A DNA stretch of 30,230 bases, from NCBI GenBank assembly GCA_043819135.1, contig JBDRFG010000090.1, positions 1 through 30,230 on the forward strand, given 5' to 3'. The notes below the pieces were generated by a model. The model saw only the letters and a program-made list of their open reading frames with translations, had not been told where the DNA came from and ran no database searches. This document shows, piece after piece, positions 1-13,608 of the stretch (position 1 is its first letter; each line of letters begins with the position of its first letter). A program made the translations under genes and the position numbers. This DNA is from Candidatus Eiseniibacteriota bacterium. GTDB lineage: Bacteria > Joyebacterota > Joyebacteria > Joyebacterales > Joyebacteraceae.

Positions 1-129
1 CTTCCGTGTATGGTCCGCGGTCAGGCGTAAGAAGCGCCGATAGTCGTGTCGACTCAGTTGCGGTTCGGCGGGGCGAGGCGCCGGTCAGCAGGACACCAAT
101 AACAACGTTCGTGCATTGAATCCCATGAA

Positions 130-320
130 CCCTCGAGAGGAGGCGCCGGGTGATTGAGCAGAGACGACCGATACACTCGAGATCGCACCTCGAGGGCCCA
201 CCTTCGTAGCTAGTCCTTCTACTCAGCCAAGGTGTAAGCGTAACGGCCCCTCGTCAGTGCGGGGCCTGCAACTCGTTGCTGCCGATCTCGAGAGTGTATC
301 GGGTGACGGAGCACTCTGTC
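130..320 (+). promoter_or_regulatory. Structured 5' leader (candidate attenuator) upstream of the GNAT operon
   Basis: 168-185 (ccgatacactcgagatcg) pairs with 283-302 (cgatctcgagagtgtatcgg): 18 bp with a 2-nt bulge. The alternative pairing 147-156 with 169-179 is mutually exclusive with it. 130-137 (ccctcgag) pairs with 189-196 (ctcgaggg). Inner hairpins at 245-266 and 268-279. Confidence 0.5.
150..209 (+). CDS. Putative 19-aa leader peptide MIEQRRPIHSRSHLEGPPS
   Basis: SD GAGGAGG at 137-143, 6-nt spacer, GTG 150-152, TAG 207-209. Too short for the ORF track. Overlaps the 5' arm of the long inverted repeat. Confidence 0.45.
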   Translation: MIEQRRPIHSRSHLEGPPS

Positions 321-512
321 TTCCCGACGCACGGGCAGGCAGGACGGCGGGCAGGCTGGGTATTTCGAGCACTGCCCCCGCGGCAGGCAGACGGCCGAGC
401 CGACCGTCCGGACGCTGAAGGTAGATCGGTGCGAGGCGGAGCCGGCGAACATGACACTTGAACTCACGACTGAAGCGGGCGCCACGCCCTCGCGCGAGGG
501 GAAGAACAGAAC

Positions 513-698
513 ATGGAGTATCTGATCAGCGCACAGGACGAGAGCGACAGGCGGTACCAAGGCCTGCTCGACGTCTCGAACGCATCATGGCCGGACCCCG
601 AAAGGGCCGTTCTGGCAATCAGAGGAAGAAGCAAGAGTGTGAACGTGATACGCGTTCTCAACATCAAGATCAAGTTCGAGACCCAGCCTGCCCGCTAG
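513..698 (+). CDS. 61-aa GNAT-derived microprotein (N-terminus plus C-terminus of the downstream double-GNAT family)
   Basis: Residues 1-28 align without gaps to the start of 6412..7410 (13/28 identical, including SD..Y....DVSNA.WP). The C-terminal VLNIKIKFETQPAR matches GLNMQLGFEAQPAW (7/14). No acetyl-CoA motif. Confidence 0.6.
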   Translation: MEYLISAQDESDRRYQGLLDVSNASWPDPERAVLAIRGRSKSVNVIRVLNIKIKFETQPAR

Positions 699-736
699 GT
701 CAACCGAAAGGAACCGCGACGCGAGGATTGCTAATC

Positions 737-1711
737 ATGACGATACGACCGTTCAACTTCAGCGACACCGATTACCAGGCGCTAGCAGACATCTCAAACG
801 CCGTCTGGCCCGACAGGCCGAGCGTGCCGCAGGCCACCAAGGAGAACGACAAGCGGCGCGACCCGAAGTACTACTTCCAGCGCCTGGTCGTGGAGAGCGG
901 CGGCGGAGTAATCGCAAGCGCCATCTACGGCGAGTCCGACTGGACTCACGTGCCCGGGAAATTCTTCATCAGTGTGCAGGTCCACCCGGACCACCAGAGG
1001 AAGGGGACCGGGACGGCGCTCTACGACCACATCATGAAGGACCTGGCGGAGCGCGGTCCCACGATCTTCGAGTCCCATGCCCGGGAGGACAGGTCTGAGG
1101 GGATGAGCTTCCTGGAGAAGCGCGGGTACAAGAAGACTCTGCGCGACCAGGTATCAGAGCTGGCGGTCGCCGACTTCACACCGGAGCCGTTCGCCTGGAC
1201 CGCGGACCTTACGGAGAAGACCGGGGTCGAGATACGGACCGTGGCGGAGCTTACGGCCGACGGGGTCGACTGGAAGCGTGACGTGTGGGAGCTCGAGTAC
1301 GAGCTGCTACAGGACGTTCCGACCGACGACCCGGTGACGAAGCAGCCGTTCGAGCGTTGGCTGGAATGGCTGACGCACCCGGCATATCTCCCGGAGGCGT
1401 TCTTCATTGCGATCAAGGACGGCAGGTTCGTCGGGATGACGAGCCTGTGGCAGTCCCTGGCCGAGAGGGACAAGCTCCACACGGAGCTGACGGCCGTCGT
1501 GAGGAGTCTGCGCCGGAAGGGGATAGCGACCGCGCTCAAGGTGCGCGCTATCGAGTTCGCGCGCGACCGCGGAGCCCGCGTTATCAGGACGGACAACGAG
1601 GAGAACAACCCGATGTACGACCTCAACGTCCGTCTCGGCTTCAGGCCCGTGCCGGCCTGGTGGACCTACAGGAAGGAACTCAATAATCCAAACGGAGACA
1701 CACGACCATGA
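737..1711 (+). CDS. Tandem (double-domain) GNAT N-acetyltransferase, paralog 1
   Basis: Start reassigned to ATG 737 (MTIRPF) by homology with paralogs. Motif A occurs twice: VHPDHQRKGTG and RRKGIA. C-terminal TDNEENNPMYDLN.RLGF. Confidence 0.92.
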   Translation: MTIRPFNFSDTDYQALADISNAVWPDRPSVPQATKENDKRRDPKYYFQRLVVESGGGVIASAIYGESDWTHVPGKFFISVQVHPDHQRKGTGTALYDHIMKDLAERGPTIFESHAREDRSEGMSFLEKRGYKKTLRDQVSELAVADFTPEPFAWTADLTEKTGVEIRTVAELTADGVDWKRDVWELEYELLQDVPTDDPVTKQPFERWLEWLTHPAYLPEAFFIAIKDGRFVGMTSLWQSLAERDKLHTELTAVVRSLRRKGIATALKVRAIEFARDRGARVIRTDNEENNPMYDLNVRLGFRPVPAWWTYRKELNNPNGDTRP

Positions 1712-2706
1712 TGACGATACGAAAGTTCAAGAAGATCGACGGCGACTACCGGGCAGTGCTCGACATATTGAATGCGCTGTGGCCGGACGAGAGGCAAGGA
1801 CTCTCCGAACTCAAGTACGAGGATGAAGCCCGCGACCCGAAGTACACGCATGAGCGGTACGTGGGGGAGGTGGACGGGAAGATCGTGGCGTCAGGCGTCT
1901 ACGCGCACTGCAACTGGAGCCACGTCCCGGGCAAGTACCTCGTGTCCGTCGATGTGCATCCTGACTACCAGAGACAGGGGCACGGTGGTCAGTTCTTCGA
2001 CTTCCTGATGGACGATCTCGGCAAGCGGGATGCCGACACGCTCGTCACCTGGACGCGCGATGACAAGCCCGACTATGCCAGCTTCATTACGAAGCGCGGG
2101 TTCGAATTCTCGATGCGCTACGCCGTGTCGCGGCTGGACGTCGAGGCGCTCGACCTGTCGGAGTTCGAATGGACGCCGGGCAAGATGAAGGAGCTCGGCG
2201 TGGAGATCCAGTGTCTGACGGAACTGGCCGAGATCGATCCGGAATGGAAGCGCGCATGGTACGACATCGCGTGGGAGCTCTTCCAGGATGTGCCGTCGGT
2301 CGACGAGGTCACGCGGCCCACGTTCGAGAACTGGTGCAAGCGATTCGAGAGCCCGGGCTACCGGATGAACCTTCACTGGTTCGCTCGTGACGGCGACCAG
2401 CTCGTGGGCTACACGGGCCTCTGGTTGTCCGAGGCCGACCCGGCGAAGATCTACACCGGTCTGACGGGTGTCGTGAGGAGCCACAGGCGGAAGGGAATCG
2501 CCACGGCGCTCAAGGTCCACGGGTTCTCACGCGCCAGGGAACTCGGCAAGAAGAGCATCGAGACGGACAACGAGGAGAAGAACCCGATGTTCGATCTCAA
2601 CATGCGGCTGGGCTTCAAGCCCGCTCCCGCGTGGACCGAGTACCGGCGCCCTTTCGCTGACGTGCCGGCCGAAAGCCAGGCCGTCGAGGCATCGGAGGGC
2701 GCATAG
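1708..2706 (+). CDS. Tandem GNAT N-acetyltransferase, paralog 2
   Basis: ATGA overlap with paralog 1. VHPDYQRQGHG and RRKGIATALK; TDNEEKNPMFDLN. Confidence 0.93.
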   Translation: MMTIRKFKKIDGDYRAVLDILNALWPDERQGLSELKYEDEARDPKYTHERYVGEVDGKIVASGVYAHCNWSHVPGKYLVSVDVHPDYQRQGHGGQFFDFLMDDLGKRDADTLVTWTRDDKPDYASFITKRGFEFSMRYAVSRLDVEALDLSEFEWTPGKMKELGVEIQCLTELAEIDPEWKRAWYDIAWELFQDVPSVDEVTRPTFENWCKRFESPGYRMNLHWFARDGDQLVGYTGLWLSEADPAKIYTGLTGVVRSHRRKGIATALKVHGFSRARELGKKSIETDNEEKNPMFDLNMRLGFKPAPAWTEYRRPFADVPAESQAVEASEGA

Positions 2707-2716
2707 AGGGAATACG

Positions 2717-3334
2717 ATGAAGCTGACGATGAGAGCGTACGAAGCGTCCGACTTCTGGAAGATTCGCGCGTTCCTGCGCGAGACCTTCCTCCTGAACGGT
2801 CGAGAGGAGACGAACTGGCAGGCGTACAGGTTCGAGTACTGGGTGTGGCACGGCGTCGCGAACCTCGACCAGGGTCCCTTGGAGGAGAAGGTCTTCCTCT
2901 GGGAGACGCCGGACGGCGCACTCGCCACGGTGCTCAACGCCGAGGGTAAGGGCGACAACAGGGCGGACGTCACCTGGTACCGTAGCATCCAGAAGGCGCC
3001 GCTCTACCGCCGCGACCTTGACATCGTCGCGGTCGCGCCTGACGGAGCGGTTGCATCGTTCTGCACTATCTGGTTCGATGACATCACGCTGACCGCCGCC
3101 TGCGAGCCCGTGGCCACGTCGCCCGCCCACCAGAGGAAGGGCCTCGCAAGGGCCTGCATCCACGAGGGTCTCAGGCGCGCGAAGGAGATGGGCGCGACCC
3201 TCGGGTTCGTCGGTTCGGGCGAAGAGGGTGCCCACCGGTGCTACGCTTCGGCGGGTTTCAAGGACTACAGTATCTCGAGGCAATGGGTCAAGGAGGTCCA
3301 GGATGCGCCAGGGGTTCGCAATCAGGCCGTTTGA
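2717..3334 (+). CDS. GNAT N-acetyltransferase of a different family, probably internally deleted
   Basis: SD GAGGG. One motif A (PVATSPAHQRKGLA) and a C-terminal YASAGF. Lacks TDNEENNPM. 3' end overlaps the next gene by 32 nt. Confidence 0.85.
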   Translation: MKLTMRAYEASDFWKIRAFLRETFLLNGREETNWQAYRFEYWVWHGVANLDQGPLEEKVFLWETPDGALATVLNAEGKGDNRADVTWYRSIQKAPLYRRDLDIVAVAPDGAVASFCTIWFDDITLTAACEPVATSPAHQRKGLARACIHEGLRRAKEMGATLGFVGSGEEGAHRCYASAGFKDYSISRQWVKEVQDAPGVRNQAV

Positions 3335-4280
3335 TGGTTCCGACGAGGACTACGAGGCCATCGTGGATGTCTGGAACGCCGCCTTTCCGGACGAGATCAC
3401 GAACGCGGAGACGCGGCGCCATCACGACGAGCACCTCCAGACGCAGTTCCTCTTCGAGCGGCTCATCGGCGAGATAGATGGGACGCCCGTCCTCAACGCG
3501 TACTACGGCGAGGACGAGTGGAGCCACTTCCCGGGCAAGTACAGGCTGGGCATTCAGGTCGTTCCAGAGTACCGCCGCATGGGGTTTGGGCGTGCCACGT
3601 ACGACTACATCTGGGACCGGATCAAGGACCGCAACCCGAAGCCGAAGGCTCTTGCAACCTACGCGCGCGAGGACGATCCCGACAGCATGCGTTTCGTCGA
3701 GAAGCGCGGGTTCAAGGTGGTGCAGCGCAACCAGTTCTCGAAGCTGGACGTGCGGTCGTTTGATCCGTCGCCCTTCGAAGGAACGCTCAAGCGTGTCGAT
3801 GAGTCCGAGGTGGACGTCCGCTCGTTCGGAGATCTGATGGCCGAGGATCCCGACGCGTTAAGAAAGGCCTACGAGGCCGGCTGGGAGTTTCTTCAGGATG
3901 TGCCGTTCCCGGACCCCATCCAGAAGATGCCTTTCGAGCAGTACATGGCCGAAGTAGAGGGGCCGTGGGGAATGCCGAAGTCGTGGTTCATCGCCGTCGA
4001 CCAGGGCCGTTACGTCGGGATGTCGCAGCTCTGGCTCATCCCGGCACAGCCGAGGCGCCTTCAGACCGGACTCACAGGCGTCTCGCGGACACACAGGCGC
4101 AGAGGTATCGCCACCGCGCTCAAGGTGCGGACGATATCGGGCGCCAGGGAGTCGGGCTTCGTGTCGATACGGACGGACAACGAGGAGAACAACCCGATGT
4201 ACTTCCTCAACGTCAAGCTGGGCTTCAAGCCGATACCTTCCTGGCTCGCGTACAAGAACGAGCTCAAGAAGAGGGACTGA
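3303..4280 (+). CDS. Tandem GNAT N-acetyltransferase, paralog 3
   Basis: SD AAGGAGG before ATG 3303 (MRQGFAIRPF). VVPEYRRMGFG and RRRGIATALK; TDNEENNPM. Confidence 0.92.
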   Translation: MRQGFAIRPFDGSDEDYEAIVDVWNAAFPDEITNAETRRHHDEHLQTQFLFERLIGEIDGTPVLNAYYGEDEWSHFPGKYRLGIQVVPEYRRMGFGRATYDYIWDRIKDRNPKPKALATYAREDDPDSMRFVEKRGFKVVQRNQFSKLDVRSFDPSPFEGTLKRVDESEVDVRSFGDLMAEDPDALRKAYEAGWEFLQDVPFPDPIQKMPFEQYMAEVEGPWGMPKSWFIAVDQGRYVGMSQLWLIPAQPRRLQTGLTGVSRTHRRRGIATALKVRTISGARESGFVSIRTDNEENNPMYFLNVKLGFKPIPSWLAYKNELKKRD

Positions 4281-4321
4281 CACCGACCCGCGGTTGGCGG
4301 GCGCCCCGCATCGGAGGATCG

Positions 4322-5359
4322 ATGAGCGCCACGAGAGGCCCGAAGGGGCTCACGATACGACCGTTCGACGGCAGCGACGCCGACTACGAGGCCACGGCCG
4401 CCATATGGACGGCCAACTGGCCGGACGAACCGAGTTCTCAGGAGGGCACGCGCTACGCCGACGCGACCCGCGAGAAGAAGTACTTCTTTCAGCGCTGGAT
4501 GGTAGAACTCGACGGAGAGATCGTGGCGACCGCCATTGCCAGCGAGCCGGAGTGGTGCTACGGGCCGGGGAAGTACGACATCCAGGTCCGCGTGCTGCCC
4601 GAGTTCCAGAAACGGGGTATCGGCGGAACGCTCTACGCTTACGTGATGGACCGCCTGAACGAACTGGAGCACAAGCCCGCCAACCTGCACGCCGACGCGC
4701 GTGAGGACCAGCCGCACTCCGTCAAGTTCCTGACGGACCGTGGGTTCGAGCAGAAGCAGCGGCAGCAGGTCTCGAGGCTGGACGTCGCCTCCTTCGACGC
4801 AGCGCCGTTCGCGGGGAGCATCAAGCGTTTCGAGGAGTCCGGCCTGACGATGAAGACTCTCGAGGAACTCGAGGCGGAGGACCCGGAGGGGAGACGCAAG
4901 GCATACGAGAAGTATGTGGAGCTATTCCAGGACGTGCCCATCTTCGAGGACCGCATCGAGATCTCATACGAGATGTTCGAGAGGGAGCTGGGGGCACCGA
5001 ACCGAATCCCGGGCGCGATTACCCTCGTGTTCGACGGTGATGAGATAGTCGGGACGACGAGTCTCTGGAAGCGTCTCGCCGACCCCGGGAACCTGGGCAC
5101 CGGTCTCACGGCGGTCGCGCGCAGTCACAGGCGCAGGGGCATCGCCACTGCGCTCAAGGTAGGAGCCATCGAGTTTGCGCGGAGCCTCGGCACGAGAGTC
5201 ATACAGACAGACAATGAGGAGAACAACCCGATGTACGACCTGAACGTGCGGCTCGGGTTCAGGCCGGTCCCGGCGTGGCTCATCTTCCAGAAGCTGCAGG
5301 GCGAGATGGCCGAAGCGGCCGGCTCGGATGCCGGTGTCGCCGCAGAGGAGACCAGTTGA
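4322..5359 (+). CDS. Tandem GNAT N-acetyltransferase, paralog 4
   Basis: SD GGAGG before ATG 4322. VLPEFQKRGIG and RRRGIATALK; TDNEENNPM. Confidence 0.92.
   Translation: MSATRGPKGLTIRPFDGSDADYEATAAIWTANWPDEPSSQEGTRYADATREKKYFFQRWMVELDGEIVATAIASEPEWCYGPGKYDIQVRVLPEFQKRGIGGTLYAYVMDRLNELEHKPANLHADAREDQPHSVKFLTDRGFEQKQRQQVSRLDVASFDAAPFAGSIKRFEESGLTMKTLEELEAEDPEGRRKAYEKYVELFQDVPIFEDRIEISYEMFERELGAPNRIPGAITLVFDGDEIVGTTSLWKRLADPGNLGTGLTAVARSHRRRGIATALKVGAIEFARSLGTRVIQTDNEENNPMYDLNVRLGFRPVPAWLIFQKLQGEMAEAAGSDAGVAAEETS
4375..4425 (+). repeat. 51-nt direct repeat, copy A (copy B at 5388-5438)
   Basis: 49/51 identical to 5388-5438. A second pair, 5216-5266 vs 6223-6273, is 50/51 identical. Confidence 0.9.
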
Positions 5360-6363
5360 AGCTGCGCATACGACCGATGAGCGAGTCCGACGCCGACTAC
5401 GCGGCCACGGCCGACATATGGACGGCCAACTGGCCGGAGTACCCGAAGACGGCGGAGATGTACCGCTACTCCGCCGAGACGCGCGACCCAATGAGCATCC
5501 TGGGACGACTCGTCGCGGAGGACGGCGACGGCATCGTGGCGACCGGGTACTTCCGCGAGGAGTCCGACAACGTGGCAGAGGGCAAATTCCTATTGTACAC
5601 GCAGGTTCATCCCGACCACCACGGCGTGGGCATCGGCGGCGCGCTCTTCGACGACCTGCTCGAGCACCTCGAGGTGCACTCTCCTAAGATCCTCTCGTCG
5701 TTCACGCGCGAGGACCACGAGGCCGGCGTCGCATTTCTCGAGAAGCGCGGGTTCCGTGTCGCCATGAAGGAACAGGATTCGGAGCTGGACCTCTCGACGT
5801 TCGACCCCGCGAAGTTCGTGGGTGTCGTCGAGAAGGTCCGCGAGTCGGGCATCGAGATTCTGCCGGCCTCCGAGCTTGCGAAGCGCGACCCGGGCTGGAT
5901 GACGAGGGCGTGGGAGCTCCACGGCGAGATCATCCCGGACGTGCCGGATGACGACGTGCTTACGAACGTGCCGTACGAGCAGTTCGATAAGAGTTTCAAG
6001 CACCCGGACTTCATTCCGGAAGGCTACTTCCTCGCGCTGGACGGTGACCGCTACGTCGGCATGAGCAGCGTCTGGAACAGGCGCGTCAAGAAGGGCGAGG
6101 TCTACACGCGGCTCACCGGCGTCGTCAGGAGCCACCGAAGACGCGGCATCGCGACCGCCCTCAAGATCCGCGCCCAGGAGTTCGCCAAGTCGATGGGCGC
6201 GCGTGTGGTCGTGACCGACAACGAGGAGAACAACCCGATGTACGACCTGAACGTGCAGCTCGGGTTCAGGCCGACGAAGGCCTGGCTCCAGTTCAGGAAG
6301 GAACTTGGTGCGACAAGGGACTCCGGCGCGACAGGAGGTCCCGGCCCGACCACTGACGAATAG
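5356..6363 (+). CDS. Tandem GNAT N-acetyltransferase, paralog 5
   Basis: SD GAGGAG at 5345-5350. TTG start overlaps the upstream TGA (TTGA). VHPDHHGVGIG and RRRGIATALK; TDNEENNPM. Confidence 0.92.
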   Translation: MKLRIRPMSESDADYAATADIWTANWPEYPKTAEMYRYSAETRDPMSILGRLVAEDGDGIVATGYFREESDNVAEGKFLLYTQVHPDHHGVGIGGALFDDLLEHLEVHSPKILSSFTREDHEAGVAFLEKRGFRVAMKEQDSELDLSTFDPAKFVGVVEKVRESGIEILPASELAKRDPGWMTRAWELHGEIIPDVPDDDVLTNVPYEQFDKSFKHPDFIPEGYFLALDGDRYVGMSSVWNRRVKKGEVYTRLTGVVRSHRRRGIATALKIRAQEFAKSMGARVVVTDNEENNPMYDLNVQLGFRPTKAWLQFRKELGATRDSGATGGPGPTTDE

Positions 6364-6411
6364 CACACACACGTCGCGCGTAGTTAAGGCGTGGCGTCGG
6401 AGGACAGCACA

Positions 6412-7410
6412 GTGACATTCAAGATACGACCATTCGACAAGTCCGACGAGGACTACCGGGCGGCGGTCGACGTGTCAAACGCCAACTGGCCGGAAGAGCT
6501 TGCCGCGCCGGAGAGCTGGCAACACCGAGACAAGCACCGCGACGAGAAGTACCTGTTCGGGCGCGTTGTGGGGGAGGTGGACGGCAAGGTAGCCGCATAC
6601 TCGAGCTACGGCGAGAGCTCCTGGGCCCACGTCGCCGGCAAGTATTTCATCCACATCGAGGTGCACCCGGACCACCAGCGGAACGGTTACGGTGCGGCCA
6701 TCTACGATCACGTCACGGGACTCCTGGCTGAGCGCGACCCGCTCTTTTTCACTGCCGACACTCGCGAGGACAAGCCGGACTTCATCCGCTTCCTGACGAA
6801 GCACGGATTCGAGCAGACCATGCGCTATCCGGTGTCGCACCTGAACCCTCAGACCTTCGACTTCTCGAAGTTCGACGGCGTCGAGGGGCGCGTGAAGGAG
6901 CATGGCATCGAGATAGTCAACGTGCCCGACCTGCCCGCGCGCGACCCCGACTGGAAGCGGAACTGGTACGAGCTCGAGCAAGAGTGCTGGATGGACGTGC
7001 CGCTTCCCGAGCCGCCGACCAGGGGCAGCTACGAGGAATTCGAGTCGCGCTTCGATTCACCCAACTACGACGCGAGGGCGCACTTCATCGCCATCGACGG
7101 CGACCGCTACGTGGGAATGACCGGTTTCTGGACGTCGCCGGTCGAGAAGCACAAACTCTATACCGGACTGACCGGCGTGATCAGAAGCCACAGGCGGAAA
7201 GGCATTGCCACCGCACTCAAGGTCAGCGGCGCCAGGTACGCGCGCGACTACGGGGCGACCATCGTCGAGACCGACAATGAGGAGAACAACCCGATGTTCG
7301 GCCTCAACATGCAGCTGGGGTTCGAGGCGCAGCCCGCGTGGATCGACTTCCGGAAGGTGCTGAGGGAGCCGCGCGAGGGCGAGACGATCCCGGAGGTCAA
7401 GGAGCGTTAA
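6412..7410 (+). CDS. Tandem GNAT N-acetyltransferase, paralog 6
   Basis: SD GGAGGA at 6399-6404 and GTG 6412 (MTFKIRPF); alternative start 6391. VHPDHQRNGYG and RRKGIATALK; TDNEENNPM. Confidence 0.92.
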   Translation: MTFKIRPFDKSDEDYRAAVDVSNANWPEELAAPESWQHRDKHRDEKYLFGRVVGEVDGKVAAYSSYGESSWAHVAGKYFIHIEVHPDHQRNGYGAAIYDHVTGLLAERDPLFFTADTREDKPDFIRFLTKHGFEQTMRYPVSHLNPQTFDFSKFDGVEGRVKEHGIEIVNVPDLPARDPDWKRNWYELEQECWMDVPLPEPPTRGSYEEFESRFDSPNYDARAHFIAIDGDRYVGMTGFWTSPVEKHKLYTGLTGVIRSHRRKGIATALKVSGARYARDYGATIVETDNEENNPMFGLNMQLGFEAQPAWIDFRKVLREPREGETIPEVKER

Positions 7411-7432
7411 CCTGTCAGGGAGGAAGGACGTC

Positions 7433-7828
7433 ATGCGGATGCAGAAACACGTCACACTGCTGGGAGTGCTCTTCATCGCCTACCACGTTCTGGGGCTCAT
7501 CGTCGGCATCTTCATAATGGCGTTGCTGTCGACCATCGGTTGTCTGACACACGACCCGCAGGCCGTTGCCATTCTGACCACCATCGGAGTTGGCATCGGC
7601 ATGTTTCTGGTCGTCCTGTCGGTCCCGGGGCTCATCGCCGGCATCGGGCTTCTGAGGCGCAAGAGCTGGTCGCGCATCCTCTCACTCATCGTGGGCGCGT
7701 TCGATCTCATCGACATCCCGTTCGGCACCGCGCTCGGCGCCTACAGCTTCTGGGTCCTGCTGCAGGACGACACGCTGCAGGTCTTCGGCCAGGGCGGTGT
7801 CAAGGTGGGCGGGGGCTGCTCGGGATAG
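7433..7828 (+). CDS. Small integral membrane protein (about 3-4 TM), unknown function
   Basis: SD GGAGGA. Long hydrophobic segments, GLLRRKSWSRIL loop and a PFGTALG motif. Confidence 0.8.
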   Translation: MRMQKHVTLLGVLFIAYHVLGLIVGIFIMALLSTIGCLTHDPQAVAILTTIGVGIGMFLVVLSVPGLIAGIGLLRRKSWSRILSLIVGAFDLIDIPFGTALGAYSFWVLLQDDTLQVFGQGGVKVGGGCSG

Positions 7829-7867
7829 GACGACTCGGCCCGGCGAGAGCCGGCACCAGGGGGATCC

Positions 7868-8347
7868 ATGGCTGTGACGTTCCACCCATCCAGGGAGGCC
7901 ATCGAGCTTGCCCTCAAGAGCATGAAGGAAGCCGGACTCGTGCACCCCGACGCGGCGTTCAACGAGGACGCGCCCGACGGTCTGCGCGGAGAGGTCACGT
8001 ATCGCGACCCGCACTTCTCCTACAGGCTCGGAAGGACGTCGCTCGAGAGCAGGATCGTCGACTCCGCGCTCGAACTCCTTAAGAGAGAAGGGCACGTGCC
8101 CGTCTCCGCCGACTACGACCGACAGGCGATGGAGAAGCACCGTGCCGAACTCAAGGAGGAGTTCGAGGGTCCGTTCGACTTCGTACGCCTGCCCGAGGGA
8201 GCGTGGGTCATCGCCCACGACAACCTCGACTGGACCGCTCAGAAGCAGATGGCGCCATACCTCGAGTTTGTACGCGACGAGGCGCACTTCAGCGAGAGCA
8301 TCTGCTTCGATATTGACGATTGCGGAATGGAGTTGTCCATCAAGTAG
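7868..8347 (+). CDS. Hypothetical protein (159 aa, acidic)
   Basis: SD-like AGGGGGA. GC3-biased codons. Followed by a terminator-like hairpin. Confidence 0.7.
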   Translation: MAVTFHPSREAIELALKSMKEAGLVHPDAAFNEDAPDGLRGEVTYRDPHFSYRLGRTSLESRIVDSALELLKREGHVPVSADYDRQAMEKHRAELKEEFEGPFDFVRLPEGAWVIAHDNLDWTAQKQMAPYLEFVRDEAHFSESICFDIDDCGMELSIK

Positions 8348-8380
8348 CGTCCCGGTCCAGGCACTGCCTGAGCCCGCCTG

Positions 8381-8406
8381 AGCGGCCCCTCCGGGGGCCG
8401 CTTTCC
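8381..8406 (+). terminator. Probable intrinsic terminator
   Basis: agcggcccc-tccg-ggggccgct 9-bp stem followed by a short pyrimidine tract, after the 7868..8347 stop. Confidence 0.55.
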
Positions 8407-8507
8407 ATGTTCAACCGTCCACGTGCGGGCGGAGTCAAAGCTTACGGTGAGAGCGTTTTGACCCTGCATCGGGACCGGGACAGACCCCCAAGCTTGCGGC
8501 ACCCCGA

Positions 8508-8568
8508 GAGGTCCAACGCAGGGAATACAGGGCGGACGCGGCGCGGGAGCCGCGTCCCCCTGGACCTC
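8508..8568 (+). promoter_or_regulatory. Nested stem-loop upstream of the 8602 uORF
   Basis: gaggtcca (8508-8515) pairs with tggacctc (8561-8568), enclosing ggacgcggc (8534-8542) paired with gccgcgtcc (8549-8557). Confidence 0.4.
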
Positions 8569-8601
8569 AGAAAGAACACGGGAGACAAGGAGACCGGACT
8601 G

Positions 8602-8697
8602 ATGGTATTCGGAACGAGAATGAGAAGTCTGCGGAGGCGACTGGGTACGTTCGCCTTCACGGCGTTGGCGCTGTTGCTGCTCACCTGTGTGAACTAG
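8602..8697 (+). CDS. 31-aa signal-peptide-like small protein MVFGTRMRSLRRRLGTFAFTALALLLLTCVN
   Basis: SD AAGGAG before ATG 8602. Basic n-region plus hydrophobic h-region. Shares RM.SL.RRLG, in register from the start Met, with the next gene. Confidence 0.55.
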   Translation: MVFGTRMRSLRRRLGTFAFTALALLLLTCVN

Positions 8698-8726
8698 ATC
8701 CACCTACCACGCTGCAGGTTGCCAGT

Positions 8727-8762
8727 ACGGGTGCCCGCCGGCTAGTCCTGGCGGGCGCCCGT
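8727..8762 (+). promoter_or_regulatory. Strong hairpin between the uORF and the S41 peptidase RBS
   Basis: acgggtgcccgcc / ggcgggcgcccgt 13-bp stem (one G-U). No U-tract. Ends about 8 nt before the SD. Confidence 0.45.
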
Positions 8763-8781
8763 CTGCGTGAAGGGGGGAGAG

Positions 8782-10161
8782 ATGAGACGGAGTGACAGGA
8801 TGATGTCGTTGAAGCGGCGTCTGGGGCTCGCGGTGCTCCTGACGCTGTTTGTTCTTCTGGCGACGACGCAGTGCTTCGCACAGACGCGCGTGGTCGTCGG
8901 CCAGGACGAGTCGAAGCCAGCAAGTGCCGAGTTCAAGGCGGCCGCGGTAGACTCCATCAGCTGGGCGCTCAACAAGACGTATGTCTTCGAGGACGTCGCC
9001 AGGGACATGGAGAAGCTCCTGCGCCGCAAGCTCAAGAACGGCGACTACGACGAGTTCGCGACCATCCAGGACTTTGCGCGTCAACTGACCGATGACATGC
9101 AGGAAGTCAGCGGCGACCGGCACCTCGGCGTGCGCTTCATGAGCGACGAGGCCGTTGCGGAGGCCGCGGCCGGCGACGAGGACCCTGAGGTCGCCCATAA
9201 GATGGCCTTCGAGCGCGGCAGTAAGCAGAACTTCCAGTTCAAGGAACTCGAGATCCTCGACGGCAACGTAGGCTATCTCAAGCTCAACGGCTTCAACGAC
9301 ACGTCGCTCTCGGGCCCGACCGCCGTGGCCGCGATGAACTTCCTCGCGCACACCGACGCCCTCATCATCGATCTGACGGAGAACGGCGGCGGCAGCCCTT
9401 CCCTCATACAGACCCTCATGGGCTACCTTCTGGACGACTCGACGCACCTGAACAGCTTCTACATCCGCGACGGCGATTCCCTGCGGCAGTTCTGGTCGGC
9501 GCCCTACGTGCCCGGCCCGAAGATGGTGGACACGGAGCTGTACGTTCTCACGAGCAGCCACACGTTCTCCGCGGCCGAGGAGTTCACCTACAACGTGAAG
9601 AACCTGAAGCGCGGGACGGTAGTCGGTGAGACAACCGGCGGAGGCGCGCATCCCGTCACGTCATACGTCATCGACGACATGAACCTGCTGGTCCGCGTGT
9701 CGTTCGGGCGCGCCATCAACCCCATCTCCGGCACGAACTGGGAAGGGACCGGCGTAGCGCCCGACATCGAGGTTCCGGCCGACCAGGCGTTCGACGTCGC
9801 CTACCTCGACGCCTTGAGCACGCTACGCGAGCGGGACATGAGCGACGAAGAGGCATTCCCGCTCGACTGGGCCATAGCGGGGCTCGACTCGAAGCTGAAC
9901 CTGGTTGAGGTGGACGCAGCGACTCTCGAATCCTATGCTGGTGACTACGGTCCCCGTCATCTCCGAGTAAAGGACGGCAATCTGTTCTACAACCGCGACG
10001 AGCGTGACCCGATCGTCGCGACGCCGATGACCGAGGCCATGTTCAGTTTCGACGCGGTGCCGTACTTCCGACTGGAGGTCGTGCTGGGTGACGACGGAGC
10101 GCCCGTCAAGATAGTCAGGCACTACGACAACGGCCACACGGACGAGAACCCGAGGGACTGA
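8782..10161 (+). CDS. Secreted S41 family peptidase (IRBP/CtpA-like)
   Basis: Signal peptide; GNVGYLKL, IIDLTENGGG, TFSAAEEF (catalytic Ser region), GETTGGGAHP, WEGTGVAPD. ATG 8782 follows a G-rich SD. Confidence 0.9.
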   Translation: MRRSDRMMSLKRRLGLAVLLTLFVLLATTQCFAQTRVVVGQDESKPASAEFKAAAVDSISWALNKTYVFEDVARDMEKLLRRKLKNGDYDEFATIQDFARQLTDDMQEVSGDRHLGVRFMSDEAVAEAAAGDEDPEVAHKMAFERGSKQNFQFKELEILDGNVGYLKLNGFNDTSLSGPTAVAAMNFLAHTDALIIDLTENGGGSPSLIQTLMGYLLDDSTHLNSFYIRDGDSLRQFWSAPYVPGPKMVDTELYVLTSSHTFSAAEEFTYNVKNLKRGTVVGETTGGGAHPVTSYVIDDMNLLVRVSFGRAINPISGTNWEGTGVAPDIEVPADQAFDVAYLDALSTLRERDMSDEEAFPLDWAIAGLDSKLNLVEVDAATLESYAGDYGPRHLRVKDGNLFYNRDERDPIVATPMTEAMFSFDAVPYFRLEVVLGDDGAPVKIVRHYDNGHTDENPRD

Positions 10162-10227
10162 TTCCGAATCCGATATACGAGCGGGCCCGGAGGGGCCCGA
10201 CTGACGACCGAGGCAAGGGGAGGGAGT

Positions 10228-13200
10228 ATGTTGGAGAGGCGACCGAGCGTTCCAATCGCAATTGGGATCGCACTTGTTCTGTTCGCATCGGCGGCGACGG
10301 CAGCGACGCCGCACGCCGGAATGCTGCGCTACCCGGACGTCAGCGAGACACACATCGTGTTCCGCTACGCCAACGATATCTGGACCGTGCCGAAGGAGGG
10401 TGGAGTGGCGGCGCCGCTCGCGAGCCCCGTGGGCAACGAGTCGCTCCCCAGATTCAGCCCCGACGGCGAGACCATCGCCTTCATGGCGAACTACGACGGC
10501 AACTACGACATCTACACCATTCCGGCGGAGGGCGGCACGCCGTACCGCGTGACGCACCATCCGAACTCCGAGCGGCCTGTCGACTGGACGCCGGACGGCG
10601 AGATCATCTTCTGGGCGTTCGGCATGAGCGACCACGCGCAGACGGTCCAGCTATACACCGTCCCGCCCGAGGGGGGGCCTCCCGAGCAGCTCCCGGTGCC
10701 CTACGGCTGGAACGCGTCCATCAGCGACGACGGGAAGTGGCTCGCCTACAACCCGTTCTCCAGCGACTACTCCACGTGGAAGCGCTACCGCGGGGGACGC
10801 GCGGCCGACATATGGCTCTTCAACCTGCGCGACCACTCGTCGAAGAAGATCACCGACTGGGAGGGCGCCGACACGTTCCCGATGTGGCACGGCGACAGCC
10901 TCTACTACGTATCCGACGCGGGTCCCGCGCACCGGCTGAACGTCTGGGTCTACGACACCAAGACCGAGCACAGCCGCCAGATCACGAAGCACCGCGACTA
11001 CGACGTCAAGTGGGCGTCCATCGGCCCCGACGCGATCGTCTACCAGTACGGTGCTGAGCTCCGCCTGCTCGACCTCGAGAGCGAGCGCTCGACCAAGGTG
11101 GACGTGAGAGTACCCGGTGACCACACCAAGGTGCGGCCGCAGCTCTTCGACGAAGCGGACCAGACTCATGGGGGCGGCATATCTGCGACCGGCAAACGCG
11201 CGGTCGTCAATGCGCGAGGTGACATCTGGACCATTCCGGCCGAGAACGGGATGCCCAGGGGCGTAACTCGCACCGACGATTCCATCGAGCGGAACCCGAC
11301 GTGGAGTCCGGACGGGAAATGGATCGCCTACACATCCGACGAGTCGGGCGAGTACGAGATCTACATCGCGCAGTCCGACGGCCGGGGCGAGACGAAGAAG
11401 CTCACCAACCGCAAGGGGAGCTACATCGAGGAGCTCACGTGGTCTCCCGACTCGGAGAAGCTGGCGTTCTTCGACAGCAGCGGCACTCTATACATACTCG
11501 AGGTCGAGTCGAAGGACGTCAAGAAGGTCTACAAGCGGGCGACCGGCGGCCGCGGTGTCAGCGTCAGCTGGTCGCACGACTCGAACTGGCTGACCTTCGC
11601 CGACCGCCCGACGATGCGGGAGGCCTGCTCCGCCGTCTTCCTGTACATCCTCGACGAGGACAAGCTCACGCAGGTGACCAGCACCATGTTCAACGACACC
11701 TGGCCGACCTTCGACCGCGCCGGCGACTTCCTCTACTACGCCAGTATGCAGGACTACACTTCATTCACCTCCGGCGACAATTTCGACACGTGGGTCTACG
11801 ACCAGACCGACCGCCTGTTGGCCGTACCGCTCCGCGAGGACGTCGAGTGGCCTCTCGTCCCCGAGAGCGACGAGGAGGAGTGGGACGACGAGGACGCCGA
11901 GGACGAGGACGGCGATGACGAGGGAGACGAAGAAGGCGAAGAGGGTGATGAGGACGCCAAGGACGACGCCGACGAGGACGGAGACGGCGACGCCGAGGAT
12001 GAAGACGGCGACGAGGACGCCGACGACGAAGACGAAGAGCCACTCGTCATCGATCTCGAGGGCTTCGAGCAGCGGGCTGTGCTCCTGCCCGTCGAGCGGG
12101 GCGGCTTCTACAATCTGGCCGTGAACCACGAGGGCAAGCTGCTCTGCCTGCGCCGCTCGGACGACGAGGCGGGCACGCTCCAGCTCGTCGACATCACGGA
12201 CGACGAGGAGATGGAGAAGACGGTGCTCACGGGCGTCGCGGGCTTCGACCTCTCTGGTGACGGCGAGAAGGTGCTCGCCGCGAACGAGTCGGGAGCACTC
12301 GCCATAGTCGATGCGGCGGCCGACCAGAGCTGGGACGAGATGCTCTCGACGGCCGGGATGGTGGTCGAAATAGACCCGAAGGTCGAGTGGATGGCGACGC
12401 TGCGCGACGCCTGGCGAATCATGCGCGACTTCTTCTACGACCCCGGCATGCACGGTGTGGACTGGGAGGGCGTGAGGAAGCAGTACGAGCCGATGGTCGA
12501 GGGCTGCGCGTCGCGGTCCGATCTCTCGTTCGTGATAGGCGAGATGATCGCCGAGCTCAACGTCGGACACGCCTACTACATGGGCGGCGAGAGCGATGAC
12601 ACGCCGGCCAGCGTCTCCGTCGGCATGCTCGGATGCGACTTCGAGCTCGACCACGGTGCGTACAAGGTGTCGAAGATCTACCAGGGCGGGCCGTGGGACT
12701 CGGACGCGAGGGGGCCCCTGAGCCAGCCGGGCATCGACGTCAGCGAGGGCGACTATATCCTCGAGGTGAACGGGGTGCCGGTCGACGCGGACAAGGACCC
12801 GTGGGCCGCCTTCCAGGGCCTCGCCGGCATGGAAGTGACGCTGACGGTCAACGAGGAGTCCTCGATCACCGACAGCGTGCGTCACGTGGTCGTCGAGCCC
12901 GTCGGGTCCGAAGGAGACCTCCGCTACCGCGCGTGGGTCGAGAAGAACCGCGCCTACGTCGAGGAGAAGTCCGGGGGCAGGGTCGGGTACATCTACGTCC
13001 CGGACACAGCCGCGGACGGACGCAACAACATCGCACGCCAGTTCGGGGGGCAGATGCACATGGATGCCCTCATCATCGACGAGCGCTGGAACGGCGGCGG
13101 CTGGTCGCCCGAGCGCTTCGTTGAGCTGTTCGACCGCCACCACGGCAGCTACTGGGCCGTGCGCGAAGTAGACGAGGGCGAGCCGGAGCCAGGGGTGGGG

Positions 13201-13608
13201 CACTATGGCCCCAAGTGCATGCTGATCAACGAGTCTGCAGGGTCCGGCGGTGACTCGTTCCCGTTCTGGTTCAGGGAGAGGGGAGTGGGCCCGCTCATCG
13301 GTACGCGGACCTGGGGCGGTCTGGTCGGACTGTCCGGCAACCCGCCTCTGGCGGATGGCGGTTACATGAGCGTGCCGCGCTTCGCGTTCTACAACAAGGA
13401 CGGGACGTGGGGCGTCGAGGGACACGGTGTCGACCCGGACATCGAGGTGGTCGACGACCCGGCCCTCATGGTTGACGGGGGAGACCCCCAGCTCGACAAG
13501 GCCATCGAGGTCATGCTGGACGAGATAGAGAAGAACCCGTTCGTTCGGGTGCCGAAGCCCGAGTACCCGAACCGCAGCGGGATGGGGATACGTCCCGAGG
13601 ACAAGTAG
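10228..13608 (+). CDS. Secreted tricorn-like protease (S41B) with beta-propeller (PD40-like) repeats and PDZ domain
   Basis: Signal peptide; repeated FSPDG/WSPDG; ELNVGHAY (His), IIDERWNGGG, AGSGGD (Ser), GTRTWGG, VEGHGVDPDIEV. Confidence 0.95.
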   Translation: MLERRPSVPIAIGIALVLFASAATAATPHAGMLRYPDVSETHIVFRYANDIWTVPKEGGVAAPLASPVGNESLPRFSPDGETIAFMANYDGNYDIYTIPAEGGTPYRVTHHPNSERPVDWTPDGEIIFWAFGMSDHAQTVQLYTVPPEGGPPEQLPVPYGWNASISDDGKWLAYNPFSSDYSTWKRYRGGRAADIWLFNLRDHSSKKITDWEGADTFPMWHGDSLYYVSDAGPAHRLNVWVYDTKTEHSRQITKHRDYDVKWASIGPDAIVYQYGAELRLLDLESERSTKVDVRVPGDHTKVRPQLFDEADQTHGGGISATGKRAVVNARGDIWTIPAENGMPRGVTRTDDSIERNPTWSPDGKWIAYTSDESGEYEIYIAQSDGRGETKKLTNRKGSYIEELTWSPDSEKLAFFDSSGTLYILEVESKDVKKVYKRATGGRGVSVSWSHDSNWLTFADRPTMREACSAVFLYILDEDKLTQVTSTMFNDTWPTFDRAGDFLYYASMQDYTSFTSGDNFDTWVYDQTDRLLAVPLREDVEWPLVPESDEEEWDDEDAEDEDGDDEGDEEGEEGDEDAKDDADEDGDGDAEDEDGDEDADDEDEEPLVIDLEGFEQRAVLLPVERGGFYNLAVNHEGKLLCLRRSDDEAGTLQLVDITDDEEMEKTVLTGVAGFDLSGDGEKVLAANESGALAIVDAAADQSWDEMLSTAGMVVEIDPKVEWMATLRDAWRIMRDFFYDPGMHGVDWEGVRKQYEPMVEGCASRSDLSFVIGEMIAELNVGHAYYMGGESDDTPASVSVGMLGCDFELDHGAYKVSKIYQGGPWDSDARGPLSQPGIDVSEGDYILEVNGVPVDADKDPWAAFQGLAGMEVTLTVNEESSITDSVRHVVVEPVGSEGDLRYRAWVEKNRAYVEEKSGGRVGYIYVPDTAADGRNNIARQFGGQMHMDALIIDERWNGGGWSPERFVELFDRHHGSYWAVREVDEGEPEPGVGHYGPKCMLINESAGSGGDSFPFWFRERGVGPLIGTRTWGGLVGLSGNPPLADGGYMSVPRFAFYNKDGTWGVEGHGVDPDIEVVDDPALMVDGGDPQLDKAIEVMLDEIEKNPFVRVPKPEYPNRSGMGIRPEDK
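11863..12039 (+). repeat. Low-complexity Asp/Glu tract inside the tricorn protease
   Basis: 59 codons, 44 of them D or E, with a single basic residue. Confidence 0.9.

Follow-up and report, generated by a model that had tools for sequence, protein, structure and literature searches.

An entire 30,230-bp contig of Candidatus Eiseniibacteriota (JBDRFG010000090.1, assembly GCA_043819135.1), hereafter the window, drawn from a 2.7-Mb genome of 64% GC, carries an operon-like row of six tandem acetyltransferases of the GNAT type, resembling Orf14 and MAB_4324c, behind a conserved leader that contains a short upstream open reading frame (uORF). Because the leader is likely a ribosome-stalling attenuator, translation stress is likely to be the condition in which the enzymes are produced, and they would acetylate amine-bearing translation inhibitors, each paralog with its own predicted substrates, which may be small amines such as aminoglycoside- or peptide-type antibiotics. 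Inactivation of translation inhibitors is the most likely single function of the enzymes, and we put the whole chain, from stalling attenuator through stress-induced battery to acetylated inhibitor, at a probability of about 0.5; that the leader by itself works like a leader-peptide attenuator of translation-stress genes is highly probable. An initial annotation of this DNA had described a leader-controlled, co-regulated, and diversified acylation battery headed by a microprotein as its built-in regulator: synteny, orthologous paralog clades, and the conserved uORF leader bear out the battery and its leader control, and the regulatory microprotein is not supported.

The uORF leader and its two kinds of cargo

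The leader was followed through 31 genomes of the phylum, which represent eight genera (g1 to g8) of a single family and include eight genomes of the window's own genus, g1. It is present in 25 of them, in seven genera, and stands before the GNAT array in 16 (g1, g3, and g5) and before an extra copy of rsgA in nine (g4, g6, g7, and g8). The 16 array leaders were used to build a covariance model and match it by construction; a search of the 31 genomes with this model returned nine new matches (E 8e-14 to 0.013), every one of them before a gene for the GTPase RsgA and with a ribosome-binding site (RBS), an ORF of 18-19 codons, and a CCTCG core at the same offset. Three of the weaker matches (E at least 0.017) were inspected (L160, L163, and L164) and lack the leader core. 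The leader-bearing rsgA is a second copy, at least 61% identical to the query, whereas the copy that almost every genome has is 41-45% identical. This second copy occurs in nine genomes of g4, g6, g7, and g8, each time with the leader, and in 0 of the 19 genomes of g1, g3, and g5, and none of the 31 genomes has two leaders. In three of the six genomes without a leader the array starts appear unassembled (G007, G041, and G043), and the other three (G008, G016, and G023) have no second rsgA. The window's own genome has a distant second rsgA-like gene (G000:C79:3150-4700; 38% identical to the query) with no leader match; it is flanked by similar repeats ending in GTTAGGC and, by eye, has the look of an integron cassette.

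Since the same leader also heads the extra rsgA, the cue appears to be translation stress rather than the general acylation of peptides and amino acids that had been offered as one possible function of the array. A more specific form of that idea is that the leader senses a shortage of a metabolite or amino acid and that the GNATs serve a peptide fermenter by acylating amino acids, peptides, or polyamines. The S41 and tricorn-like peptidases that follow the g1 array, the C45/AAT hydrolase that follows the GNATs in some Chloroflexota, and the status of Orf14 as a candidate biosynthetic enzyme (PMC8788787) would all suit it, but rsgA does not suit a metabolite regulon, the peptidases are not beside the g3 or g5 arrays, and the 25 uORFs contain no run or conserved set of control codons of the kind that marks amino-acid biosynthetic attenuators. 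We consider this explanation improbable.

The uORF and its own RBS are present in all 25 leaders (19 codons in 22, 18 in two, and 25 in one), and the CCTCG core keeps a constant offset while codons 2-12 diverge; the g3 and g5 arrays have the same RBS-uORF layout with different peptides. Within g1, the uORF shows almost no synonymous change and its replacements are concentrated in codons 3-5, which indicates that selection acts on the RNA and the frame. The 25 peptides share no RLR or other conserved +X+ motif that would mark a macrolide sensor. The two arms of the long-range helix (168-185/283-302) form a duplex of -29.3 kcal/mol, equalled by 0 of 200 shuffles; over three genera, duplexes of arms from the same genus average -24.6 kcal/mol against -15.5 across genera, and genus-matched pairing ranks 12 of 5040 permutations of seven genera. 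This helix and the one formed with the uORF's RBS are predicted to be mutually exclusive. The structured leader with a uORF that had initially been reported stands as a conserved element, with the uORF at 150-209, and not as an unusually stable one: the folding energy does not go beyond that of shuffles (z -1.12, 15 of 100 as good; z -0.48 for the leader core), and the leader's reality rests on conservation. An ATG at 125 was rejected as the uORF start, as it opens 10 codons only and has no binding site. Rfam gave two chance snoRNA matches at E up to 1 in window 1-9000 and none at gathering score in eight leader loci, and a scan near the window's leader found neither a sigma-70 consensus nor a terminator.

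The switch was modelled by RNA folding with a masked ribosome footprint. In a short transcript free of ribosomes, the uORF core is predicted to pair back on the uORF's own RBS. If a ribosome is held at codons 1-4, pairing of the core would shift to the distal arm and the next RBS would be freed in the intact g1 leaders, and with a ribosome at codon 14 the next RBS would be closed again, which is the logic of toiL and of the ermC leader, a leader-peptide attenuator. In all six intact g1 leaders and three of the nine rsgA leaders, the next RBS is predicted to be at least 3 kcal/mol easier to open with the ribosome at codons 1-4 than at codon 14. The signal would be stalling brought on by drugs or stress, with the sequence of the peptide mattering little. 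Rho polarity, as in toiL, would be a possible output; the lineage has a gene that we take, from its motif, to be Rho-like.

The leader family may reach beyond the phylum. A metagenome scan for the exact pattern, which made no demand on the cargo, gave eight hits: three GNAT arrays, three rsgA genes, and two that are cut off, with the cargo identified through TIGR00157 in one case (L195) and by eye in the other five. This reach is suggested by L195 (minus strand, 2501-2571), where the core pattern precedes a different RsgA subfamily and the stem of a U-tract terminator pairs with the uORF; a ribosome at codon 1 is predicted to open this terminator (0.93 to 0.02). A leader variant, VFVNNVAILARPHLVSPVR, precedes at least three family GNATs in a lineage outside the 31 genomes (L199:2501-5071). 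A single origin of the GNAT cargo is not supported: a quick SecA tree, which does not include G018 and whose three cargo changes include one due to a misplaced G022 row, groups g1 with the rsgA-cargo genera g4 and g7, apart from g3 and g5. On this tree the GNAT-cargo genera thus do not form one clade, which points to lateral movement of the cargo or to more than one change of it. Among the SecA pieces of G022, of which there are several, the one with the best score (L235, on G022:C203) groups with g6 and not g5, and this contig is probably contamination.

Other phyla have leaders of their own. Loci of the GNAT family were taken from the best 75 of 348 matching stretches, and 48 fetched loci from outside this bacterial family, mostly of Chloroflexota and four of them from one genome, were searched over 1.1 kb upstream with no control gene set. 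Thirteen of the 48 have an RBS, a uORF of 20-31 codons whose sequence is unrelated, and a terminator with a U-tract, all placed before the GNAT or before a HAD gene that precedes the GNAT. In 10 of these 13, a co-transcriptional antiterminator is predicted to form, which weakens or vanishes with a ribosome at the stop codon. One separate leader family has a uORF of 28-31 codons, TTGACATAA at its stop, and two tandem U-tract terminators, and precedes a HAD hydrolase, one or more tandem GNATs, and often a C45/AAT hydrolase (L080:6988, L084:7029, L091:286, L103:5809, L108:6963, and L117:159). A third type, in Chloroflexota, has a uORF of 20-27 codons and a GCCACGG/CCGTGGC terminator directly before arrays of two to seven GNAT copies (L096:7138, L099:4419, L106:7787, L126:6801, L127:7521, and L102:775).

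The tandem GNAT paralogs

The six paralogous double GNATs that had been read from the sequence are confirmed (Table 1; pairwise identity 38-48%), and further family copies are absent from the rest of the window's genome. Each paralog has two stretches matching PF00583, and the AlphaFold model of GNAT-1 (predicted local distance difference test score 86.7) is a tandem GNAT; two GNAT domains per chain of ~320-345 amino acids (aa) are given by Pfam for all six and by the model and Foldseek for GNAT-1. The C-terminal signature TDNEE(N/K)NPM..LN..LGF is in all six as described, as is RR(K/R)GIA. Of the two intact motif A copies claimed for each protein, the one in the C-domain holds and the one in the N-domain varies (VHPDHHGVGIG in paralog 5). 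Across 180 full-length family members, the acetyl-coenzyme A (acetyl-CoA) motifs of the C-domain are conserved (R259 100%, R260 98%, G262 97%, N287 98%, N291 97%, and N297 98%), and the C-terminal domain would be the catalytic one. The gene coupling also stands, with ATGA at 1708-1711, TTGA at 5356-5359, and a 32-nt overlap at 3303-3334. The seventh GNAT does belong to another family, but it is not a single GNAT of 205 aa in origin; its G001 version is a 320-aa tandem GNAT, and a 345-bp in-frame deletion has removed 115 aa here.

The paralogs have diverged where substrates would bind. The reported divergence on the substrate side is borne out by a between-paralog identity of 0.35 at residues 146-245, the acceptor side, against 0.41 in the N-domain and 0.63 on the C-terminal CoA side; identity within orthologs is 0.79-0.88, and 15 positions are fixed within each paralog yet differ between paralogs. 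This pattern would fit substrate diversification. In a FastTree phylogeny of the 180 members, the seven g1 array positions fall into seven clades, each with support 1.0, and omega for GNAT-1 is ~0.26. At E 1e-60 the family is found in 22 of the 31 genomes, with up to seven copies in g1, three in five of six g3 genomes (two in the sixth), four in four of five g5 genomes (three in the fifth), one each in g4 and g7, and none in g2, g6, and g8. At least two full-length members occur in 23 of the 48 loci outside this bacterial family (maximum seven), mostly as separate expansions on the tree. In one Chloroflexota genome (L097, L115, and L116), at least nine members lie scattered among single GNATs and methyltransferases, an arrangement that resembles a modification or resistance island.

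The several deletions seen in the assemblies of the window's and other g1 genomes might suggest that the array arose in assembly or is the debris of neutral duplication, with an incidental leader. The array order is found on one G001 contig and, in pieces, in six other g1 genomes, and because the same order recurs in all genomes of the genus the array is not an assembly artefact; the seven supported clades, the omega of GNAT-1, the 15 paralog-specific fixed positions, and the retention of the leader across seven genera speak against debris. Synteny and selection largely refute this explanation, which we regard as very improbable.

The GNAT-1 model superimposes on 3TT2, MAB_4324c, MshD, a glucosamine acetyltransferase, and Orf14 with template modelling (TM) scores of 0.70-0.77 at identities of up to 20%, and Orf14 is the best sequence match (E 2.4e-12). 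The MshD family TIGR03448 is matched at 16-20 bits against a cut-off of 163, and all matches to aminoglycoside acetyltransferase families (AAC, Eis, and SAT) lie far under the curated cut-offs. It is conceivable that, behind the same ribosome-sensing leader, the GNATs take part in repair or remodelling beside the spare RsgA and have the translation machinery itself as their target, be it ribosomal proteins, factors, aminoacyl-tRNA, or released peptides. The alternative cargo is, after all, a GTPase of 30S assembly, there are weak matches to the RimI profile (GNAT-1 E 4.5e-9, below cut-off), and Lee et al. list GNATs among predicted modifiers or protectors of the translation machinery (PMC7157823). 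However, a copy number of one to seven with independent expansions would fit many small ligands better, and among the closest folds whose substrates are known, most enzymes act on small molecules, so that we judge this unlikely, if less so than a metabolite-sensing leader.

Downstream of the array, the 131-aa membrane protein gene also follows in each of the six genus relatives for which the 3' end was retrieved, and a GC hairpin with a short U-run follows the 159-aa ORF (~8380-8403). The S41 peptidase and tricorn-like protease genes come next in g1 (window 8767-13608); a tricorn-like gene also lies near GNAT-family copies in two g4 genomes. None of nine proteins matches a PADLOC profile, which gives no sign of anti-phage defence, and a search for tRNA and tmRNA genes found none.

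Table 1. Features of the leader and array in the window
Feature	Position	Strand	Evidence or remark
Decayed sigma-70 promoter position, TCGGCG...CAGGAC	65..94	+	Alignment with relatives
uORF RBS, GAGGAGG	137..143	+	Near-invariant in 21 aligned leaders
19-codon uORF, GTG 150 to TAG 209, MIEQRRPIHSRSHLEGPPS; predicted ribosome sensor	150..209	+	25 leaders
5' arm of 18-bp long-range helix, within uORF	168..185	+	Duplex energy
Conserved core GCACCTCGAG	185..194	+	Predicted pairing with uORF's RBS or with CTCG at 273-276
Inner GC hairpin	245..266	+	Hairpin at same place in other genera, different sequence
3' arm of long-range helix	283..302	+	Genus-matched arm pairing
Distal hairpin without U-tract	315..344	+	Compensatory changes in three pairs, six genus members
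3' remnant of 122-aa hydrophobic ORF	374..525	+	Comparison with genus relatives
61-aa internally deleted paralog, no CoA-binding motif	513..698	+	hhalign, profile shuffles, relatives
Tandem GNAT 1, 324 aa	737..1711	+	Pfam, structure model, fold comparison
Tandem GNAT 2, 332 aa, ATGA-coupled	1708..2706	+	Pfam, junction in sequence
GNAT of another family, 205 aa here	2717..3334	+	Pfam; in-frame deletion at 2952/2953
Tandem GNAT 3, 325 aa	3303..4280	+	Pfam
Tandem GNAT 4, 345 aa; further paralog after it in relatives	4322..5359	+	ORF, comparison with relatives
Tandem GNAT 5, 335 aa, TTG start overlapping preceding stop	5356..6363	+	ORF, junction
Tandem GNAT 6, 332 aa	6412..7410	+	Pfam
Membrane protein, 131 aa, likely co-transcribed	7433..7828	+	Sub-threshold Pfam match only
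159-aa ORF, ~408 bp shorter than in four relatives	7868..8347	+	Genus comparison

Erosion of the window's copy and the 61-aa ORF

The window's copy has likely lost part of its control. Compared with G001, 232 bp are missing at 373/374, which removes the RBS and the 5' half of a 122-aa hydrophobic ORF, the first gene in the relatives; this ORF, which has no Pfam match, is intact in G001, G003, G004, G005, and G006 and shortened in frame in G002. No switch is predicted in the window, whose switched site has been deleted. A promoter-like TTGAC-N16-19-TANNNT lies 73-137 nt upstream in 21 of the 25 leaders, as TTGACG-18-TAGCAT at the equivalent site in G001, G003, and G004, and is absent in the window, G002, G005, and G006. 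Contig C41 of the same genome ends in the 141 bases with which the window begins, and it holds MFS and DUF4342 genes that in G001 lie upstream on the same strand; the shared bases and this gene order indicate that C41 and the window are joined, so that transcription could read through into the leader. After GNAT 4, ~1,017 bp that hold one paralog are missing relative to relatives. Other g1 genomes have different deletions at the same locus, and deletions around it look unusually frequent in the genus; no deletion junction is bridged among the pieces listed for three low-depth DNA contig sets. G005 has two different array starts, one of which fuses parts of GNAT-3, and most of the S41 peptidase gene is missing in G005 and G006 (L033:84-491, L048:2-477, and L032:4762-4929).

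The 61-aa ORF, which had been taken for a miniature GNAT heading the array as its built-in regulator, is the family N-terminus fused to the C-terminus. It joins family positions ~2-29(43) to 285-309, with ~250 residues and both motif A copies gone; its N-part aligns with the N-terminus of the family (hhalign 90% over residues 5-32), and its C-part matches the family profile weakly (2.6 bits, better than 500 of 500 shuffles). It has no Pfam or NCBIfam match, and without motif A and the central sheet it does not qualify as a GNAT enzyme.

Most likely the ORF is a deletion remnant kept as a translated spacer. In G002 the stop of the remnant overlaps the GNAT-1 start, which suggests that an unbroken chain of translation counts for more than the peptide does. 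A functional microprotein that acts on the GNATs by binding and regulating them would account for an ORF with its own purine-rich RBS that is intact in five of the eight g1 genomes, 82-92% identical in four relatives, and at an omega of 0.40-0.43 (p 0.011-0.018) over 13 synonymous and 18 non-synonymous distinct changes if transition bias is left aside. With the observed bias, however, omega rises to 0.57 (p 0.09), so that purifying selection would be borderline. The ORF is restricted to g1, where it is frameshifted in G002, 10 aa shorter in G004, and unassembled in G007, and it is absent before the g3 and g5 arrays, though both keep the leader; similar in-frame deletions recur across the locus. 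Complex prediction with GNAT-1 (score 0.00) gives no answer either way, and the best ESM Atlas match, at 0.86, is at lead level only. A regulatory role, though possible, is unsupported, the regulator is probably not real, and we rate it somewhat below even the metabolite-sensing alternative.

Relation to known systems and significance

Attenuators of this general kind are known. In Listeria, a uORF attenuator, rli80, controls hflXr, the gene of a spare ribosome GTPase (PMC6310831), and in Escherichia coli toiL, upstream of topAI-yjhQP, responds to several classes of antibiotic by way of a helix that involves the next RBS (PMC12121999). The present leader is like both in its short uORF with its own RBS and its predicted mutually exclusive helices, like rli80 in that it would control a spare ribosome GTPase paralog, and like toiL in that some of its members are predicted to control the next RBS. 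It differs from them in sequence, in having no Rfam match, RLR motif, or (in this lineage) U-tract terminator, in its cargo of an acetyltransferase array or rsgA, and in that its drug response is predicted only. The view that no such system had been described is therefore half right: uORF attenuators over stress and resistance genes are known, and this leader family with its cargo was not found in the open-access literature, nor was the GNAT array. The available text of a description of a related seep phylum (PMC11323493) does not mention GNAT.

The combination of cargoes has a counterpart in Streptomyces coelicolor, where WblC activates the rsgA paralog SCO6149 (68-fold) and 16 GNATs under tetracycline (PMC7157823). 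In the WblC/WhiB7 regulon, a single response to translation stress likewise covers a spare rsgA together with many GNATs, with the difference that there a transcription factor relays the signal, whereas here one cis leader stands directly before either cargo. In Mycobacterium abscessus, WhiB7 directly targets MAB_4324c (37.5-fold), whose product acetylates amikacin mildly (PMC10727445). This protein (PDB 7Q3A) has the same tandem GNAT fold and is the second-best fold match of GNAT-1 (TM 0.70, 20% identity), although it is not among the sequence matches of the array GNATs; it is induced in a ribosome-antibiotic regulon, as a single gene under WhiB7, with no cis leader or array in the available text of that report (PMC10727445). 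The C-terminal region T-N-x-x-N-x-PM-x-x-x-N-x-x-LGF also occurs in Orf14 (PDB 2WPW/2WPX), from the clavulanic acid cluster, and the C-domain of Orf14 is the one proposed to be catalytic, for a reaction that its review calls unproven (PMC8788787), in keeping with the C-side conservation of the array GNATs; the Sphaerobacter GNAT 3TT2 is the best fold match (TM 0.75). Both differ from the array proteins at ~20% identity, and Orf14 lies in a biosynthetic cluster, of which there is none at the array. MshD and Eis have a tandem or repeated GNAT fold as well, some databases automatically naming relatives 'mycothiol synthase', but Eis is longer (TM ~0.5).

Several observations weigh against a stress-induced battery of inhibitor-modifying enzymes. 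The RBS switch is predicted in only nine of 25 leaders, and not in the nine g3 and g5 leaders, the six remaining rsgA leaders, or the window, and the leaders of this lineage have no U-tract terminator. Covariation per sequence is modest, with the own partner best in 11 of 25 cases, and the genera are not independent. The family copies in g4 and g7 have no such leader, nor do 35 of the 48 loci in other phyla, and at equilibrium folding only three of 14 terminator-type leaders switch. On the side of the enzymes, the array GNATs reach no NCBIfam or curated family cut-off, they are at most 20% identical to solved relatives, and equally good folds acetylate glucosamine, a mycothiol precursor, or proteins. 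Moreover, deletion of MAB_4324c had no amikacin phenotype, and no phenotype came from three other tested WhiB7 acetyltransferases (PMC10727445).

With these reservations, we tentatively propose that an undescribed family of ribosome-sensing leaders acts as a portable translation-stress switch, exchanged in evolution between a spare RsgA and a GNAT battery that has been expanding, and that the GNATs may be an unrecognised inducible, broad-panel class of antibiotic- (or ribosome-) modifying enzymes of sediment bacteria that has repeatedly come under unrelated attenuators in different phyla. The locus is more informative through its RNA leader than through a microprotein, as the leader offers a functional handle on two orphans: the spare rsgA and a large, unannotated tandem-GNAT family, which 447 proteins of 8,000 scored candidates match with an E-value of 1e-30 or better. 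The seven fixed paralogs provide a ready panel for substrate discovery, and spare rsgA copies, which are antibiotic-induced in Streptomyces, gain a candidate cis switch. If it is true that the enzymes modify translation inhibitors, then the locus would extend the environmental resistome and indicate unknown natural antibiotics in sediments.

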